Source of the DNA: Candidatus Zambryskibacteria bacterium RIFCSPLOWO2_02_FULL_51_21 | GTDB taxonomy: Bacteria > Patescibacteriota > Minisyncoccia > Phycocordibacterales > Zambryskibacteraceae | Assembly: GCA_001824255.1 (NCBI GenBank) | Contig: MHWQ01000002.1 | Span: 139,548 to 203,547 of the forward strand | Length of the DNA: 64,000 bases | Reading direction: 5' to 3' | In this document: positions 5,168-43,496 of the stretch, in pieces | Numbering within the stretch: the first letter of the stretch is position 1 | Layout of the letters: every line of letters begins with the position of its first letter | Translations under genes and position numbers: made by a program | Notes under the pieces: generated by a model | Told to the model about the DNA's origin: nothing | The model's database searches: none | Seen by the model: the letters and a program-made list of their open reading frames with translations, nothing else

Positions 5168-5185
5168 GCGTGGTATAATTTTTAC

Positions 5186-20851: not shown

Positions 20852-21693
20852 AAGAATTGGCCGCCAAGGCCAATGACATCCGTGTCTCCCTCATTGAGGC
20901 CTTGGTGAACGCCGGCTCCGGCCACACCGCGGGGCCTCTCGACATGGCGGACATTTTTACCGTCTTATTTTTCCATACTCTCAAACACAAGCCAAAGAAG
21001 CCAGACTGGCCCGAACGCGACCGTTTGGTGCTCTCGAACGGCCACATCTGCCCGGTACTCTACTCCGCCATGGCTCACGCGGGCTACTTCCCACTCGAAG
21101 AGCTCAAAACTTTGCGCAAATTCGGCTCGCGCCTCCAGGGCCATCCGCACAGAGATTTCCTGCCAATGCTCGAGACCAGTTCCGGACCTCTGGGCTCGGG
21201 ACTATCGCAGGCGGTGGGCATGGCTATCGCCGACAAGATGGATTACGGCCTCACCAGTTCGCGCCGCATCTACGCGCTCCTTTCCGACGGAGAACTCGAA
21301 TGCGGCCAGACCTGGGAAGCGGCTATGCTCGCGGGCAAGGAGAAGCTTCACAACCTCACCGCCGTCGTGGACCGGAACAATATCCAGATAGACGGCTACA
21401 CCGAGAACGTCATGCCTTTGGAATCGCTCTCGGATAAGTGGCGGGCCTGGAACTGGCATGTGATTGAGATTGACGGACACAATATCGAGGAAATCGCCGA
21501 CGCCTTCGAGGCGGCGAAGTCCGTCTTCGGCCAGCCGACTGTCATCATCGCTCACACCATTGCCGGCAAGGGGGTGAAAGAATTCGAAAGGGATTACCGC
21601 TGGCACGGCAAACCGCCGAGCCCGGAGGAGGGAAGAGTCGCCCTCCACGAACTCCGCACCCTGGGCGGGAAGATCAGGTCAGAACACCAGTGA
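20827..21693 (+). CDS. tktA: transketolase, N-terminal (TPP-binding) subunit
   Basis: Split transketolase: 'GSGHTAGPLDMADI', 'VLSNGH', 'GPLGSGLSQAVGMA', 'SDGELECGQTWEA'. Confidence 0.9.
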   Translation: MELSDERIKELAAKANDIRVSLIEALVNAGSGHTAGPLDMADIFTVLFFHTLKHKPKKPDWPERDRLVLSNGHICPVLYSAMAHAGYFPLEELKTLRKFGSRLQGHPHRDFLPMLETSSGPLGSGLSQAVGMAIADKMDYGLTSSRRIYALLSDGELECGQTWEAAMLAGKEKLHNLTAVVDRNNIQIDGYTENVMPLESLSDKWRAWNWHVIEIDGHNIEEIADAFEAAKSVFGQPTVIIAHTIAGKGVKEFERDYRWHGKPPSPEEGRVALHELRTLGGKIRSEHQ

Positions 21694-22673
21694 TGCTGAA
21701 CCCCAATTTAAAACTGAATAAAAAGATTTTTGACAAGGATATCGAGCAGATTCCTATTCGAAAGGGATTCGGTCAAGGACTCCTGGCCGCTGGAGAGAAA
21801 GACCCCAGAGTGGTCGTGCTCTGCGCCGACCTTACGGAATCCGCGCAGGCAATCTTTTTCAAAGAGAAGTTTCCGAACCGCTTCGTCGAGTTGGGCGTTG
21901 CGGAGCAGAACATGGCTTCGGTTGCGAGCGGCATGGCGGCTATGGGCAAGATTCCCTTCATCACTTCCTACGCCATGTTCTCTCCGGGCAGGAACTGGGA
22001 ACAGGTTCGCACCACCATCTGCTACAACGACAGACCTGTAAAGATTGCCGGCTCTCACGCGGGCATCTCCGTCGGCCCGGACGGCGGCACGCATCAGGCC
22101 ATCGAGGATATGGCTATTACCAGAGTCCTGCCGCGTATGGTTGTAATCTCGCCCTGTGATGCCATAGAAGCCAGGAAAGCTACGGAAGCCGCGGCAGAGA
22201 CCGACACGCCCGTTTATATACGCCTGGCGCGGGAGAAGACGCCGGTTATGACGACGGACAAAACACCTTTCAAAATTGGCCTTGCTCAAACTGTCTGGCA
22301 GGGTAATAAACCGAAGGTAGGAATTATTGCCACCGGCGCGCTTCTCTATCAGGCCCTTCTCGCCGCAAAAGAATTGAAGGAGAAAAAGATTGAAGTTGAG
22401 GTGATGAATCTCTCGACCATTAAACCGCTTGATAAAAAATCGATTGTCGCTCTCGCCAATAGGGTAGAGGGTATCGTTACAGTTGAAGAACATCAGATAA
22501 ACGGTGGTATGGGTTCGGCAGTCGCCGAATGCCTCGCCGAGCACAGACCGACTCCTATGCGCTTCATAGGCGTCCACGACAAATTCGGCCAGTCCGGCAC
22601 CCCAGACGAGCTTATCAAGCATTACAGCATGGACGCCAAGGCCATCATCGAAGCGGCAAAAGAATTAATTTAA
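21690..22673 (+). CDS. tktB: transketolase, C-terminal (pyrimidine-binding) subunit
   Basis: 4-nt overlap with the upstream subunit. 'RKGFGQGL', 'FVELGVAEQNMASVASGMA', 'GPDGGTHQAIEDMA'. Confidence 0.9.
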   Translation: MMLNPNLKLNKKIFDKDIEQIPIRKGFGQGLLAAGEKDPRVVVLCADLTESAQAIFFKEKFPNRFVELGVAEQNMASVASGMAAMGKIPFITSYAMFSPGRNWEQVRTTICYNDRPVKIAGSHAGISVGPDGGTHQAIEDMAITRVLPRMVVISPCDAIEARKATEAAAETDTPVYIRLAREKTPVMTTDKTPFKIGLAQTVWQGNKPKVGIIATGALLYQALLAAKELKEKKIEVEVMNLSTIKPLDKKSIVALANRVEGIVTVEEHQINGGMGSAVAECLAEHRPTPMRFIGVHDKFGQSGTPDELIKHYSMDAKAIIEAAKELI

Positions 22674-22682
22674 GATATCCCC

Positions 22683-23062
22683 AGGTTCTGCACATTTTCT
22701 CCACAATTAATTATTTGACGCGATTCTGCGTTGGGAATATAAATAACATTAGAGACTGCTCGAAGAAAACAACAGTGATTCCCGAAGACTCCCGCAAGGA
22801 TGAGTCTAAACCTCACAAGAGGGACTAAGGGGGAAGAGCCCAAACCAAGGACCGCAGCACCAACTGCGGACACCAGGGGTCGTAGGAGCGGGCTAGGGTG
22901 CAAAACCCGGCAAGTTACAAACCAGTTCGAAAGCACTGGCTTGCGATCCGCTTCCTGGCTGCGTAAATGCAGCACACCACCTGACCCGTAAGGGCAGGTA
23001 AGGCTAAATCGAGCATCGCTCTGTCCTCAAACGCCACGACTTCAAATCGTGGCGTTCGCTTT
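22683..23062 (+). ncRNA. candidate structured noncoding RNA (family unassigned) ending in an intrinsic terminator
   Basis: 380 nt with only short overlapping ORFs and no RBS. Internal hairpins ('agactcccgcaaggatgagtct'). 3' hairpin 'aacgccacgacttcaaatcgtggcgtt' + cgcttttta. Confidence 0.25.
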
Positions 23063-24046
23063 TTATAAAACTTTTGTTTCGAATTCTGGGGAAGCTGATT
23101 TAAGATATTCCTCGATTTTTTCGCGGGAGAGGAGGCCGCGCTGGGCGCCGAGCTCCTGGCAGACCGACATAGCATTTACCGAAGCCCATTTGAGAGCCGT
23201 GGGGAGATCGTTTCCAAGCGCAAGGGCTGCCACCGTAGTGGACGCAAAGGCGTCTCCGGCGCCGGTCCTGTCATAAGCCGGTTTCTGGTCCGGATAAGCG
23301 GGCTGGAAATACATTTTGCTCCCATCGTAAGCGTACGCGCCTTTCGGCCCAGCGGTAATAACTACAATTTCCGGCCCCAAGTCTCTCATCCTCTTCAAAA
23401 GTTCTTGCGGACCTAGAGTATCGATGCCGAGAATTCTCTCGGCTTCCTCGGTATTACAGAAAAATATTTTCGTCTTTTTATAAATTTCTCCCAGCCCTTC
23501 GGTGCTGAGAGAGATTTGGAAAGTGCCCGGCTGGAAAGCGAGATTAACCTCGAGATTATTCCTGACATAATCGGCAATAGCGCCGTGATAGGCAATAGTG
23601 TCTTCGCCGAGAGAAGAGAGATAGAGCCATTTCGGCTTACCGATATCGGGCAGAATACGCTCATACTCCTGGTGCTTCACCAGAATCGTCCTGTCATGCT
23701 CGTACCAGAGAACATAGTGGTAATTCGACTTTTTGCCGGCGTGGATGGAGACAAATTGCGTATCCACACTTTCGCTTGTAAGGGTCTCGAGACATCGATG
23801 GCCGTAGCTGTCATCGCCCAAGTTCGTGACAAGCGCTGACTTGAGCCCGAGCCGCGCGGCGGCAACGCTTGCGTTGGGAGAGTTGCCCACGGCGCTGATT
23901 TCTTCGACCGATTCGTAAGGAATCTTATCGCCGAAAGCCATGCAAATCTGGCATTTCTCGTCATTCACGTCGCAATGGACGGAGGCATCCTTGAGCTTGA
24001 TGAAGGCGTCGGTCGTGATATCGCCAATCGCTATAAAGTCGTGCAT
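23063..24046 (-). CDS. PfkB-family carbohydrate kinase (ribokinase/fructokinase-like)
   Basis: Start trimmed to 'MHDFIAIGDITTDAF'. C-terminal 'DRTGAGDAFASTTVAALALG' PfkB signature 2. Divergent from fba. Confidence 0.8.
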   Translation of the reverse strand: MHDFIAIGDITTDAFIKLKDASVHCDVNDEKCQICMAFGDKIPYESVEEISAVGNSPNASVAAARLGLKSALVTNLGDDSYGHRCLETLTSESVDTQFVSIHAGKKSNYHYVLWYEHDRTILVKHQEYERILPDIGKPKWLYLSSLGEDTIAYHGAIADYVRNNLEVNLAFQPGTFQISLSTEGLGEIYKKTKIFFCNTEEAERILGIDTLGPQELLKRMRDLGPEIVVITAGPKGAYAYDGSKMYFQPAYPDQKPAYDRTGAGDAFASTTVAALALGNDLPTALKWASVNAMSVCQELGAQRGLLSREKIEEYLKSASPEFETKVL

Positions 24047-40075: not shown

Positions 40076-40186
40076 TTTTCACTTATCCACAGTTTGAAGG
40101 GAAAAGGAGGGTATTGCGTCTAGTATTGTGGCGATGGGTGGGATAGAATGTTAAGGGGTGGGAAAAAGTGGTATTATGAAAAAAAT

Positions 40187-40582
40187 ATGTTTATTGGCGA
40201 ATACACCCATAATCTCGACGAGAAGAATCGTTTCTCTCTTCCAGCGAGACTCCGAAAAGCTCTCGGCAGGAAAGTCGTTGTTACTCGAGGCAAAGATCAT
40301 TGCCTTTTTCTCTATCCCAGCGGGACCTGGCTTCAAATCTCACAAGAGGTTAAGAAGTTAGGCCACGTGGAAGCGGACCCGCGCTTCGCCAGGTTCACCT
40401 TCGCCGGCGCGGCCGAGATTGAGATTGACTCCTTGGGCAGGATTCTAATCCCCGAATTCTTGCGGGAATTCGCTGAGCTCGCAAACTCGATTGTCATCAC
40501 CGGAGTCCACGATAGAGTGGAAATTTGGAATGACAAGAAGTGGGCCGCTTACAGAAAGAAGCTTGAATCGGAATATGCATAA
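40187..40582 (+). CDS. mraZ: transcriptional regulator MraZ
   Basis: 'MFIGEYTHNLDEKNRFSLPARLRKALG' plus a second SpoVT/AbrB-like repeat 'DSLGRILIPEFLRE'. Confidence 0.85.
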   Translation: MFIGEYTHNLDEKNRFSLPARLRKALGRKVVVTRGKDHCLFLYPSGTWLQISQEVKKLGHVEADPRFARFTFAGAAEIEIDSLGRILIPEFLREFAELANSIVITGVHDRVEIWNDKKWAAYRKKLESEYA

Positions 40583-41384
40583 GCCGGTCCTTTTGCGGGA
40601 AGTCATAAGCAATCTGAATTTGAAGGATGGGGAAGTGTTTGTGGACGCGACATACGGAGCCGGCGGTCATACAAAAGAGGTTCTGAAGAGATTCCCGGGA
40701 GTGAAAGCCATAAGCATTGACCAGGACCCGGAAACTCACGCCGATATCACCGGCAATTTCCGGGACTTGGACAAGCTTATCGGCGACACAAGACCGGATG
40801 CCATCCTTCTCGACATCGGCCTCTCGAGCGACCAGCTAGAAAATTCCGGCCTGCCTGCCGGTAGGCAGGGCAGGGGATTCTCTTTCCAGAGAGACGAGCC
40901 GCTCGATATGCGGATGTCGGGGAAAGGAATTACGGCCGCCGAAATCCTCAACTCCTGGGACGAGCCAGCCATTGAGCTCATCCTCCGGGGATTCGGCGAA
41001 GAGCGATTCTCAAGATTAATCGCGAAGAGAATTGTCGAGAGAAGACAAACGAAGCCGTTCAAAACCACTTTCGACTTAGTAGATGTGATAGGTGGTAAGC
41101 GAAGCAAGATTCATCCGGCCACCCGCACTTTCCAGGCCTTGCGCATCGCCACGAACGAAGAACTCGCGGCTCTCGAAGAAGGTCTGGAGAAGGCATGGCA
41201 AGTCTTGAAGCCGGGCGGCAGGATTCTGGTCATAAGCTTCCACAGCTTGGAAGACAGGATAGTGAAGAACTTCGCGAAGAGGGTAATGGGCAAAGCAAGG
41301 AAACCCATTACTCCTTCCGACGAAGAAATTGGCGAGAACCCGAGGTCGAGAAGCGCCAAATTAAGAATCATCGAAAAACCATGA
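40575..41384 (+). CDS. rsmH: 16S rRNA (cytosine1402-N4)-methyltransferase RsmH
   Basis: 'MHKPVLLREVISNL', 'DATYGAGGHT', 'GGRILVISFHSLEDRIVK'. Confidence 0.9.
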   Translation: MHKPVLLREVISNLNLKDGEVFVDATYGAGGHTKEVLKRFPGVKAISIDQDPETHADITGNFRDLDKLIGDTRPDAILLDIGLSSDQLENSGLPAGRQGRGFSFQRDEPLDMRMSGKGITAAEILNSWDEPAIELILRGFGEERFSRLIAKRIVERRQTKPFKTTFDLVDVIGGKRSKIHPATRTFQALRIATNEELAALEEGLEKAWQVLKPGGRILVISFHSLEDRIVKNFAKRVMGKARKPITPSDEEIGENPRSRSAKLRIIEKP

Positions 41385-41761
41385 TAAAAAAATTCAGGAT
41401 AAGCGACGAACAGCTTGCTCTGCCGTTCAGAGAAAGGCCCGCAAGGGTTCTCTCTCTCCGGAGAGTCAGTTACGAAGACCGCCAGAGGACCTTCTGGGTG
41501 CTGGCGGGCATTTCCATATTTTCCCTTTTCATCTATTTTTACGCCGTAAACGCTATCGCCAGGAACACCGCCTTGAGGAGCAATCTGGAAGCCCATCTCT
41601 CCGACGCCGGTTCCCGCATCGGAGCTTTGGAATTCTCATATATCGAGCTGCGAAACGGCATTACGAAAGAAAAAGCGGGCGAACTCGGCTTTTCTGAGGT
41701 AAAATCTCCTCTATACGTCTCAAGAAATGCCGCTGCCGCCCTTACTTTCCATTCAGAATAG
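41381..41761 (+). CDS. ftsL: FtsL-like cell-division protein (single TM + coiled coil)
   Basis: Position between rsmH and ftsI. One TM 'FWVLAGISIFSLFIYFYAV', then helix. Confidence 0.5.
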   Translation: MIKKFRISDEQLALPFRERPARVLSLRRVSYEDRQRTFWVLAGISIFSLFIYFYAVNAIARNTALRSNLEAHLSDAGSRIGALEFSYIELRNGITKEKAGELGFSEVKSPLYVSRNAAAALTFHSE

Positions 41762-43496
41762 GTTACGCTTCCTCTCCCTTCTCATACTTCTTTTCGCGCT
41801 GTTCCTTATTGCGAAGCTTTATGCCGTGCAGATTATTTCCGGAGAAGACTTCGAGCTCAAGGCGGAGCACCAGTACGTGGCGGGGGTGAATTATTTCGAC
41901 CGGGGCTCGATTTTCTTCTCCACCAGGGACGGGTCGCTCGTGCCGGCGGCGACGGTCAAGCTCGGCTTCATCCTCCACATCAATCCCGGCATATTAATCG
42001 AGTACGGAGCGGTAGAGAGCACCTACGAGAAATTGAACGCCATCGTCCCCCTCGACAAAGCGGATTATCTCGCCAAGGCGGGGAGGACCAGCGACCCGTA
42101 CGAAGAGCTCAAGAGGCGCCTCGGGGAAGATGAGGCGAGACAAATCCAGGCCTTGAAGATTCCCGGCGTGGCCGTCACGCGCGAGAGATGGCGCGTTTAT
42201 CCCGGAGAGACCATGGCCGCCCACGCGGTGGGACTTATCGGCTACGGTCCGACGGGAAGCGAGATTGCAGGCCGCTATGGACTCGAACGCAAGTACGAAG
42301 ACGTCCTCGGCAGGAAGGGCGACGATGTCTTCGTCAATTTCTTCGCGGAAATATTTTCCAATATCAAGGATAAGGCCTTGGGTGACGGTGCGCTCGACGG
42401 CGACATCGTCACGACCATCGAGCCCTCGGTCGAGGCCTTCCTCGAAAGCGAGATTAAGAAGGTGAACGACCAGTACTTATCAGAATTTACCGGCGGCATC
42501 GTCATCGACCCCACGACGGGCGAGATTGCCGCCATGGCGCTGACGCCGACTTTCGACCCTAACTCTCCGCAAGAAGCGGAAAGTTCAAATATTTTTTCTA
42601 ATAAACTTATCGAAGACCGCTATGAAATGGGCTCGATTATAAAGGCCATGACCATGGCCTCCGCCCTTGATGCCAAAGCGGTAACGGCCAAGACCGCTTA
42701 CAACGACCCGGGCTGCATGACTTTGAATACTAAGACTTTCTGCAACTACGACCTGCGCTCTCACGGTACCAGCGTCACCATGCAGCAGGTGCTCGATCAA
42801 TCGCTCAACACCGGCGCCGCCTTCGCCGCGCTCCGGATGGGCCCGAAAAAGTTTGACGAATACATGCTCCGCTTCGGCCTGGGGGACCTCACGGGCATAG
42901 ATTTGCCGAATGAGGGCAATTCGCTCGTTTCCAATTTGAAGACCAATAGGGAACTCGAGGCCGCCCAGGCCTCCTTCGGCCAAGGCATCGCGCTCACCCC
43001 TATAACGACCGTACGGGCCATGTCGGCCTTGGCGAACGGCGGTACGCTTATTACACCCCATTTGGTCAAGGAGATACGCTATAAAATAGGACCAAATAAA
43101 ACACTTAGTTATCCGGCAGCCGGAGAAGGGGAGAGGGTCATAAGCCCGGAAGCATCGGCCGAGATTTCGAGGATGCTGACGGAAGTTGTGGATACATCTC
43201 TGCGCTACGGTCAGATGAAGATTCAGAACTACTCAATCGCCGCGAAGACCGGCACGGCGCAAATCGCAAATCCGGCCGGCGGCGGCTATTACCAGGACCG
43301 GTTCCTCCACTCCTTCTTCGGCTACTTCCCGTCCTACGACCCGGAGTTCCTGGTCTTCCTCTTCACTTATTATCCGAAAGAAGTGCAGTTTGCTTCCGAG
43401 ACCCTGACCGACTCCTTCTTCAACATCACCAAGTTCCTCATAAATTATTACGAAATCCCGCCGGATAGAGAATCTTCTCCCCAGGCCTCAATTTGA
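41727..43496 (+). CDS. ftsI: penicillin-binding protein 2 / FtsI (peptidoglycan D,D-transpeptidase)
   Basis: N-terminal TM and dimerisation domain. 'GSIIKAM' (SxxK), 'SLN', 'KTGTA'. Confidence 0.85.
   Translation: MPLPPLLSIQNRLRFLSLLILLFALFLIAKLYAVQIISGEDFELKAEHQYVAGVNYFDRGSIFFSTRDGSLVPAATVKLGFILHINPGILIEYGAVESTYEKLNAIVPLDKADYLAKAGRTSDPYEELKRRLGEDEARQIQALKIPGVAVTRERWRVYPGETMAAHAVGLIGYGPTGSEIAGRYGLERKYEDVLGRKGDDVFVNFFAEIFSNIKDKALGDGALDGDIVTTIEPSVEAFLESEIKKVNDQYLSEFTGGIVIDPTTGEIAAMALTPTFDPNSPQEAESSNIFSNKLIEDRYEMGSIIKAMTMASALDAKAVTAKTAYNDPGCMTLNTKTFCNYDLRSHGTSVTMQQVLDQSLNTGAAFAALRMGPKKFDEYMLRFGLGDLTGIDLPNEGNSLVSNLKTNRELEAAQASFGQGIALTPITTVRAMSALANGGTLITPHLVKEIRYKIGPNKTLSYPAAGEGERVISPEASAEISRMLTEVVDTSLRYGQMKIQNYSIAAKTGTAQIANPAGGGYYQDRFLHSFFGYFPSYDPEFLVFLFTYYPKEVQFASETLTDSFFNITKFLINYYEIPPDRESSPQASI

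Follow-up and report, generated by a model that had tools for sequence, protein, structure and literature searches.

A putative free-standing RNA gene remodelled from the 23S rRNA domain I core at a convergent gene junction in a Zambryskibacteria genome

Characterised mimicry of ribosomal RNA (rRNA) in bacteria consists of short look-alike motifs within the leaders of ribosomal-protein operons. These span 30–150 nucleotides (nt), are located in the 5′ leader of the operon they regulate, and are mostly convergent look-alikes rather than evident descendants of rRNA. A different target is imitated by 6S RNA, which is an open-promoter mimic. Ribosomal-protein autoregulatory leaders that mimic rRNA binding sites (L1, L10, L20, S8) have been reviewed elsewhere (PMC10931766). 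Our own literature searches returned no report of a free-standing, terminator-bounded RNA of ~275 nt that descends from a whole 23S sub-domain and is remodelled to fold alone. Here we describe a candidate for such an RNA in a 64,000-nt stretch of the genome of Candidatus Zambryskibacteria bacterium RIFCSPLOWO2_02_FULL_51_21 (contig MHWQ01000002.1), referred to below as the window. An initial annotation had pointed to a hairpin-rich gap of 380 nt (22683–23062) between a transketolase gene and a convergent pfkB gene. This gap is real, although slightly larger at 389 nt (22674–23062, with the TktC stop ending at 22673 and the pfkB stop codon at 23063–23065), and its descent from the domain I core of a 23S rRNA gene had been missed. 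As read from its sequence, the insert at this junction carries a trimmed, self-contained derivative of that core, from J11/12 to the 3′ strand of H14, and we consider it highly probable that it represents an rRNA-derived, remodelled insertion.

The rRNA ancestry was revealed by scanning the 17-mer GGGGGAAGAGCCCAAAC (22829–22845) across one genome per species. Among 86 matches, ~55 fell within 23S rRNA genes, always in the context ...GAGAUUCCCuuAGUAGCGGCGAGCGAA|GGGGGAAGAGCCCAAACC...GGGGUUGUAGGAC (also written GCGAGCGAA|GGGGGAAGAGCCCAAACC), while the remaining ones were random and included no second stand-alone copy. A 23-nt block surrounding this 17-mer (22827–22849) is identical to the 23S rRNA of some bacteria, the exact match being to that of L020. 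None of the ~55 rRNA matches came from Patescibacteria, which hints weakly that the element was not recently copied from the host’s own 23S. Because sequences selected with the 17-mer are biased toward the window, its flanks were tested apart, using position-specific scoring matrices (PSSMs) that were derived from 39 distinct 23S sequences, covered conserved blocks outside of the 17-mer and were scanned against both strands of the window. Block B2 (AGGAAAAGAAATCAAAAGAGATTCCC) found its best match at 22758 (rank 1 of 127,950 positions), block B6 (GGGGTTGTAGGA) at 22876 (rank 2 of 127,978), and block B13 (CCAAGGCTAAATA) at 22997 (rank 1 of 127,974). All three placements are on the plus strand, within 250 nt, in rRNA order and around the 17-mer, an arrangement for which we estimate a chance probability of ~1e-8. 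The best window match of an nhmmer left half-profile (22763–22784) likewise adjoins the 17-mer. Overall, the element is collinear with nt ~215–433 of E. coli 23S rRNA (rrlH coordinates). Across the conserved blocks of nt ~190–435, four are kept (B2, the 17-mer, B6 and B13) and six are lost (the 5′ part of H11, the H13 loop, the H19 loop, CCUGAGUAC, the H21 loop and the H22 loop). This pattern suffices to establish descent from LSU rRNA, though not membership of the family. No other rRNA-like sequence was found within the 64-kb window, and the flanking genes are tktC and pfkB rather than an rRNA operon.

To describe the element helix by helix, we mapped it onto a reference structure, namely the Rfam large-subunit (LSU) consensus obtained from a genuine 23S piece, with helix numbers (H11–H22) that we take to follow the standard nomenclature. 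The resulting features, all on the plus strand, are the following, where P1 is a stem joining the two ends and MFE is the minimum free energy.

22750–23023, plus strand: predicted RNA body, from the 5′ to the 3′ strand of P1, 274 nt (MFE −104.1 kcal/mol, z −4.4).
22750–22754 (UAGAG) and 22757–22763 (UGCUCGA), plus strand: 5′ strand of P1, pairing with 23019–23023 and 23009–23015, respectively.
22758–22783, plus strand: 23S-like block comprising J11/12, H12 (CA 22770–22771 / UG 22776–22777) and the H13 5′ strand, equivalent to E. coli nt ~213–238 (PSSM rank 1).
22779–22835, plus strand: H13 equivalent, UUCCC 22779–22783 / GGGAA 22831–22835, with pairs verified in the model.
22827–22849, plus strand: 23-nt block AAGGGGGAAGAGCCCAAACCAAG, with the H13 3′ strand, the H14 5′ strand (AGCC, 22837–22840) and the CAAA junction.
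22852–22869, plus strand: H15-equivalent hairpin CCGCAG-CACCAA-CUGCGG, in the place of the 23S variable hairpin between AAACC and GGGGUUGUAGGA.
22876–22891, plus strand: 23S-like block GGGGUCGUAGGA and H16 5′ strand GGA GCGG (22885–22891), pairing with CCGC-U-UCC (22948–22955).
22895–22909, plus strand: H20-like hairpin A-GGG-UGCAAAA-CCC-G, to be compared with E. coli 324–340 (AGGGUGACAGCCCCGUA).
22910–22944, plus strand: extra hairpin GCAAG-UUACAAA-CCAGU-UCGAAAGC-ACUGG-CUUGC, in place of the deleted H18/H19 arm.
22958–22998, plus strand: shortened H21-like hairpin (22958–22973) and H22-like hairpin (22980–22998, GUAA loop).
22997–23010, plus strand: 23S-like block GGUAAGGCUAAAUC, with the H14 3′ strand GGCU at 23002–23005 (PSSM rank 1).

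Within this map, AAGGCUAAAU of E. coli 422–431 corresponds to element positions 23000–23009, and the long-range H14 pairing AGCC/GGCU (22837–22840 / 23002–23005) can be forced at a cost of 0.9 kcal/mol relative to the MFE. A 23S-like model in which all pairs are canonical reaches −88.5 kcal/mol when bare and −100.8 kcal/mol once completed with local pairs, compared to the MFE of −104.1 kcal/mol. The remodelled parts are mostly loops and ends. In place of the universal H13 loop AGUAGCGGCGAGCGAA there are two perfect hairpins, at 22786–22807 (GCAA loop) and 22811–22822 (ACAA loop), and the corresponding PSSM (block B4) had no match in the insert. The same was true of the H19 loop block CUGGAAAGG, and the conserved 23S loops ACGUGAA and GACCAC are absent from the H21- and H22-like hairpins. 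For the H20-like hairpin, the stem and closing bases are kept and the loop is altered, and an ungapped match of 11/17 and a poor PSSM rank make this assignment less secure. H11 is no longer paired, and the region of its 5′ strand now overlaps a promoter-like motif. P1, finally, is a new stem of 5+7 bp (12 bp) without a counterpart in 23S rRNA, and its duplex (−15.4 kcal/mol) was matched by only 10/5000 shuffles (p ~0.002).

The element folds no less well than functional rRNA: its P1-to-P1 fold has a z-score of −4.4, compared to −1.2 to −4.6 for the homologous segments of ten real 23S rRNAs, and the whole gap also folds better than dinucleotide shuffles on both strands (z −5.3 for the plus strand, −5.1 for the minus strand). 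Sequence identity to rRNA is concentrated in the junction strands, whereas helices differ in sequence and yet stay paired, and the deletions are sealed by stable tetraloop hairpins. This combination of conserved junctions and sequence-divergent, paired helices argues for divergence under structural constraint rather than neutral decay.

The sequence features point to a candidate transcription unit, which probably acts at the RNA level rather than coding for a protein. The proposal of an ORF-free gap is borne out, as no open reading frame (ORF) within it is supported by protein searches or by gene calls. The 101-aa minus-strand ORF had 0 matches among 1.84 billion representative proteins, the longest plus-frame ORF had no words in common with 5.8 billion proteins, and nothing was called in the gap in seven independent assemblies of the same strain. 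The gap is 100% identical across these seven assemblies, and is therefore not an assembly artefact, with no polymorphism there to analyse. Both hairpins quoted in the initial annotation are present (AGACUCCCGCAAGGAUGAGUCU at 22786–22807 and AACGCCACGACUUCAAAUCGUGGCGUU at 23030–23056), as is the intrinsic terminator that it placed at the end of the gap on the plus strand, where AACGCCACGACUUCAAAUCGUGGCGUU is followed by CGCUUUUUAU. The transcription signals identified are listed here.

22715–22743, plus strand: tentative promoter-like site found by eye, with TTGACG (22715–22720), a 17-nt spacer and TATAAA (22738–22743).
23030–23064, plus strand: intrinsic terminator, with a 10-bp stem (23030–23056) and a T-run (23060–23064) overlapping the pfkB stop codon.

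The sigma-70-like promoter motif lies 7 nt upstream of P1 and is preceded by an A/T-rich stretch (22705–22714), while the terminator lies 7 nt downstream of P1. The terminator hairpin (−15.6 kcal/mol, z −5.6) was not equalled by any of 200 shuffles, and no minus-strand T-run was found beside it, so that it should terminate plus-strand transcripts only. A plus-strand orientation is further indicated by GNRA loops (GCAA, GUAA), by the A-richness of this strand (AT skew of the gap +0.32 to +0.37) and by the promoter-like site. The terminator occurs only with the insert (no terminator was found at the junction of relatives in which tktC and pfkB overlap), and we count it together with the promoter-like site as evidence for a transcription unit. 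Hence, the notion of a structured plus-strand RNA element with its own terminator is upheld, whereas none of the specific identities initially offered for it is.

The identities considered here were an RNase P RNA, a 6S RNA, a transfer-messenger RNA (tmRNA), a signal recognition particle (SRP) RNA, or a decayed protein gene. We compared the window to Rfam at gathering thresholds and, with E<=10 and lax filters, sub-windows of 751 nt and 291 nt. The former recovered three tRNAs only in the whole window, and the latter only chance matches (a Tetrahymena snoRNA and lin-4). Bacterial RNase P RNA (RF00010/RF00011) had no covariance-model match at the gathering score or at E<=10. The two halves of the P4 pseudoknot of RNase P RNA read GAGGAAAGUCC ... 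ACAGAA..CGGCUUA, and the sole P4-like pairing in the element is 4 bp long (AGCC/GGCU) and corresponds to H14 of 23S. A tmRNA, with its tRNA-like domain and tag-peptide frame, was detected neither by Rfam nor by ARAGORN, which found only the three tRNAs in the window. SRP RNA and 6S RNA had no Rfam match, and the predicted fold is a multi-branched junction rather than a rod. As for a decayed gene, no protein or tblastx similarity was detected in any frame tested, including by tblastx against ORFs that sit at the same junction in two other lineages (L006 and L007). A divergent housekeeping RNA would be superficially compatible with the size of ~300 nt, the closing stem and the GNRA loops, all reminiscent of RNase P RNA. 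However, close relatives do not carry the element, which is unexpected for a housekeeping RNA at a fixed locus. Missing conservation of the spacer in relatives was also the observation that the initial annotation had named as telling against its own proposal. Together with the searches above, this leaves a housekeeping RNA or a decayed protein-coding gene as a very improbable explanation.

Comparison with related genomes indicates that the element is lineage-specific at this locus and probably a recent arrival. The flanking genes and the extent of the insert are as follows.

21693–22673, plus strand: transketolase C-terminal subunit TktC, 326 aa, with a true start at ATG 21693.
22674–23067, plus strand: lineage-specific insertion of ~393 nt, with a right boundary ambiguous by 2 nt within an A run.
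23063–24046, minus strand: PfkB-family kinase, 327 aa, convergent with tktC.

In four relatives (L001, L005, L105, L106), tktC and pfkB overlap by 9 nt and read ...GAATTAATTTAA|AACTTTTGTTT..., and the window insert sits exactly between these two halves. Judged from this alignment of sequences, ~393 bp have been inserted exactly where the two genes overlap in related species. The closest relative sampled (L001) has a TktC 93% identical to that of the window and ~84% DNA identity across the flanking genes. Six lineages in addition to that of the window were examined for synteny, and the element was found in none of them. The same junction holds other, unrelated sequences elsewhere: an IS200/IS605-type element with a Y1 transposase in L120 and L121 (L120 3610–4510), a 124-aa ORF in L104 (3994–4520), and ORFs of 164 aa and 270 aa in L006 (4983–5477) and L007 (4983–5795), respectively. 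The convergent junction ...AATTAATTTAA|AACTTTTG... (window 22668–22673 / 23067–23075) is thus an insertion hot spot in Zambryskibacteria-like genomes. The right end of the transposase element in L120 and L121 also reads ...ATTTAA.

The insert itself does not resemble a known mobile element. No inverted terminal repeats were found, and an IS200/IS605-type element or a non-autonomous derivative was rejected on the grounds that there is no ORF with homologues and no paired terminal hairpins. A near-terminal hairpin exists at the right end only, with no matching hairpin at the left end, and the insert had no similarity to the IS200/IS605 element of L120. A 14-nt imperfect direct repeat, ATTTAAGATATCCC (22668–22681) / ATTTAAGATATTCC (23098–23111), flanks the insert plus 30 nt of pfkB. 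A classic target-site duplication was rejected, as the right copy is pfkB coding sequence (EEYLK) and is partly conserved in relatives, and this repeat may instead represent microhomology or chance.

The flanking genes show a few further differences. The pfkB stop codon comes from the insert: the window PfkB ends in ...KVL*, and those of relatives in ...KVLN* with the stop inside tktC (window 23063–23071), so that the terminal Asn of the relatives’ proteins is lost in the window protein. In L008, which is from the same strain, a ~23-nt deletion within pfkB (L008 ~5171–5182; window ~23863–23897) yields a gene call of 292 aa with no Pfam match, for which an assembly variant and a real polymorphism are both possible. 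The window TktC has been deposited, as OHA92050.1, from Candidatus Zambryskibacteria RIFCSP metagenome-assembled genomes. Its mechanically delimited ORF begins at GTG 21690, whereas the recorded protein and all relatives (326 aa) begin at ATG 21693. In an exact look-up, the shorter ATG-start form was matched and the longer GTG-start form was not. In L001 (2915–3520), as well as in L002 and L003, an HD-domain (YfbR-like) gene lies between the two transketolase subunit genes, and no such gene is present in the window. The statement that spacers in this window are usually under 100 nt was roughly checked, and the larger apparent gaps inspected hold small genes. Another ~390-nt stretch without a convincing ORF lies at 1150–1537, between a 71-aa ORF and a sigma-70-family gene (1538–2068), and had no Rfam match at gathering thresholds. 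From translations labelled by eye, we take the region 40148–41761 to be a standard division-cluster start, presumably with a MraZ-like ORF (40148–40582) overlapping an RsmH-like methyltransferase ORF (40491–41384), then a small ORF and a penicillin-binding-protein-like gene (41727–43496).

Remodelling of the kind described here takes time, and yet relatives with ~84% DNA identity in the flanking genes do not have the element, which suggests that it evolved elsewhere. Hence, it probably arose at another locus, in another genome or on a mobile element, and reached the hot spot recently. Such an origin predicts that homologues exist. No second copy was found within the window, and blastn against phages and plasmids gave no match to the element. 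Two viral scans with 19–20-mers returned nothing, and two gapped viral patterns with insert-specific spacing gave random matches only. A metagenome 19-mer chosen to exclude true 23S gave 3 random matches, a weak negative as the source strain itself was not recovered.

Taken together, our preferred reading is that the locus encodes an expressed mimic or decoy of the 23S domain I core, to which we assign a probability of about 0.45, slightly below even odds. Such a role would be the most straightforward one for an RNA in which exactly the conserved junction of an rRNA sub-domain has been retained. Transcription would proceed from the candidate promoter and/or by read-through from the tkt operon, the latter being possible because no terminator separates the element from the tktC stop codon. 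The predicted product would be a stable RNA of ~275–315 nt that folds autonomously into the multi-helix junction shape of domain I. It would not be incorporated into the ribosome, since the strands and loops that link this block to the rest of 23S are gone and the two ends pair together. It may instead imitate the junction, bind a protein that normally recognises it (either a ribosomal protein or a factor for assembly or modification), and thereby titrate or buffer this partner. uL24 clamps H18–H20, H7 and H2-4/24 of the ribosome (PMC12274283), and both uL24 and uL4 appear to be poor partner candidates because their H18–H19 platform is deleted in the element.

Several observations weigh against this reading. 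The element is known from one species, by sequence and fold prediction, and no homologue was found in any other genome in limited searches, so that there is neither covariation nor a sign of purifying selection between species to draw upon. The four intact-junction relatives, including the closest one, are without the insert, and any function at this locus must therefore be dispensable or very recent. No ribosomal-protein gene is nearby, unlike for every characterised rRNA mimic. The −10 hexamer of the candidate promoter is without the canonical final T, and was omitted by a consensus promoter scan that demands a T at position 6 of this hexamer, although Patescibacteria may follow other promoter rules. 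Regarding the rRNA assignment, nhmmer gave nothing significant with either E. coli 23S or the Rfam consensus, and the Rfam LSU model RF02541 had no match even at E<=10 on the 291-nt query, whereas a genuine 431-nt 23S piece scores 326 bits with this model. A profile that did reach E = 3e-5 was biased, as its sequences had been picked with the window’s own 17-mer, and was replaced by half-profiles and block PSSMs that exclude it. With standard homology tools not reaching significance, the assignment rests on the block and structure analysis. The element is thus derived from LSU rRNA and still falls outside of what LSU family models recognise.

The main alternative is that the insert is a non-functional relic. 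On this view, a piece of 23S rDNA from the organism itself or from a foreign source came to lie in a permissive convergent junction, either through illegitimate recombination or carried along as the passenger of a mobile element, and plays no role. The insert-free relatives, the unrelated insertions at the same junction (the Y1 transposase of L120 and L121 and the small ORFs of L006, L007 and L104) and the limited searches without a homologue would all fit this scenario. Neutral decay, however, should erode conserved single strands and helices alike. In the element, the junction strands have instead stayed almost the same as in rRNA, all helices pair perfectly despite their different sequences, the deleted arms are closed by stable hairpins, and a new stem joins the two ends. 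The fold z-score is as good as that of real rRNA or better, a terminator and a promoter-like site also arrived with the insert, and 393 bases without a use would be expected to be lost from a streamlined genome. The nature of the donor raises a further difficulty. The Rfam consensus for bacterial LSU rRNA has a conserved H13 loop, and as this loop is missing from the element, no ordinary working LSU rRNA can have served as the donor. 23S rRNAs of the Candidate Phyla Radiation (CPR) are reported to be without only H9, H63, H78 and H98 (PMC9297842). We therefore consider a relic rather unlikely, while recognising it as the strongest competitor to an expressed mimic or decoy.

Two other explanations grant the element a role while differing on its nature. 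It could be a generic 3′ untranslated region (UTR) module that ends and stabilises the pentose-phosphate (tkt) operon mRNA and uncouples it from pfkB, its rRNA ancestry being incidental. Operon transcripts would indeed run into the element, and a terminator could be advantageous given that the relatives’ convergent genes overlap without one. For this purpose, however, a 27-nt hairpin and T-run would suffice, which leaves ~275 nt of rRNA-like architecture, with its retained junctions and closing stem, unexplained and makes this explanation improbable. Less plausible still, at the margin of what we would consider, is a true ribosome component, either one part of a fragmented 23S that is encoded apart from the rest, or else an alternative domain I. 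While the element does represent a contiguous structural block of domain I with core sequences kept, its ends pair together instead of with further pieces of rRNA. Links to H2–H10 are provided by the 5′ strand of H11 and by the strand that follows AAGGCUAAAUAC, both of which are lost, and relatives ~84% DNA-identical in the flanking genes do without the element. The universal H13 loop and the uL4/uL24 platform H18–H19 are missing as well (PMC12274283).

If the element is indeed expressed and functional as a mimic or decoy, it would indicate that rRNA genes can yield new trans-acting RNAs, supply a naturally minimal version of the domain I junction with which folding and assembly could be studied, and might reveal how ribosome biogenesis is tuned in ultra-small bacteria with few assembly factors. 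A broader proposal, which we put forward as speculation and consider doubtful, is that free-standing genes for miniaturised rRNA domains occur in some Patescibacteria or on their mobile elements. Descended from 23S and trimmed to a core that folds autonomously, such RNAs would act in trans, as sponges or chaperones that serve ribosomal proteins or assembly factors, and the present locus would be the first recognised member of this family. If it is instead a relic, it would serve as a caution that rRNA-derived sequence can wholly escape Rfam-based annotation.

Compared to the 23S domain I core (H12–H22; RF02541), the element has the same helix order, near-identical junction strands (AGAAA.CAA.AG.GAUUCCC, GGGGGAAGAGCCCAAACC, GGGGU.GUAGGA and AAGGCUAAAU), and shares the H14 pairing AGCC/GGCU as well as the H13 and H20 stems. 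It differs in being located outside of an rrn operon, in being only ~275 nt long and below every Rfam threshold, and in its deleted H18/H19, replaced H13, H21 and H22 loops, lost H11 pairing and new closing stem. rRNA pseudogene fragments are likewise rRNA-derived, lineage-specific DNA outside of the rRNA operon. These would be expected to be straightforward decaying copies, whereas in the element the loops have been remodelled and the deletions sealed, a stem closes the ends, a terminator is present, and folding is as stable as in functional rRNA. Like the ribosomal-protein leaders, it is an extra-ribosomal RNA sequence that copies rRNA structure, presumably for recognition by a cognate protein, and its helix-by-helix match to the H12–H22 junction of 23S provides the structural resemblance expected of an rRNA mimic. 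Its position is not that of a leader: a terminator follows it, the next gene is convergent, and its neighbours are sugar-phosphate enzymes rather than ribosomal-protein genes. With 275 nt and a visible rRNA descent, it also stands apart from these leaders in size and origin. With decoy RNAs such as 6S, CsrB/RsmZ and GlmY, it would share the proposed mode of action, namely titration of a protein by a stable, stand-alone structured RNA that imitates the natural nucleic-acid target of this protein. It has no sequence or structural relation to them, and the imitated target would here be rRNA. By analogy, the element would thus work like both mimic leaders and decoy RNAs while belonging to neither group.

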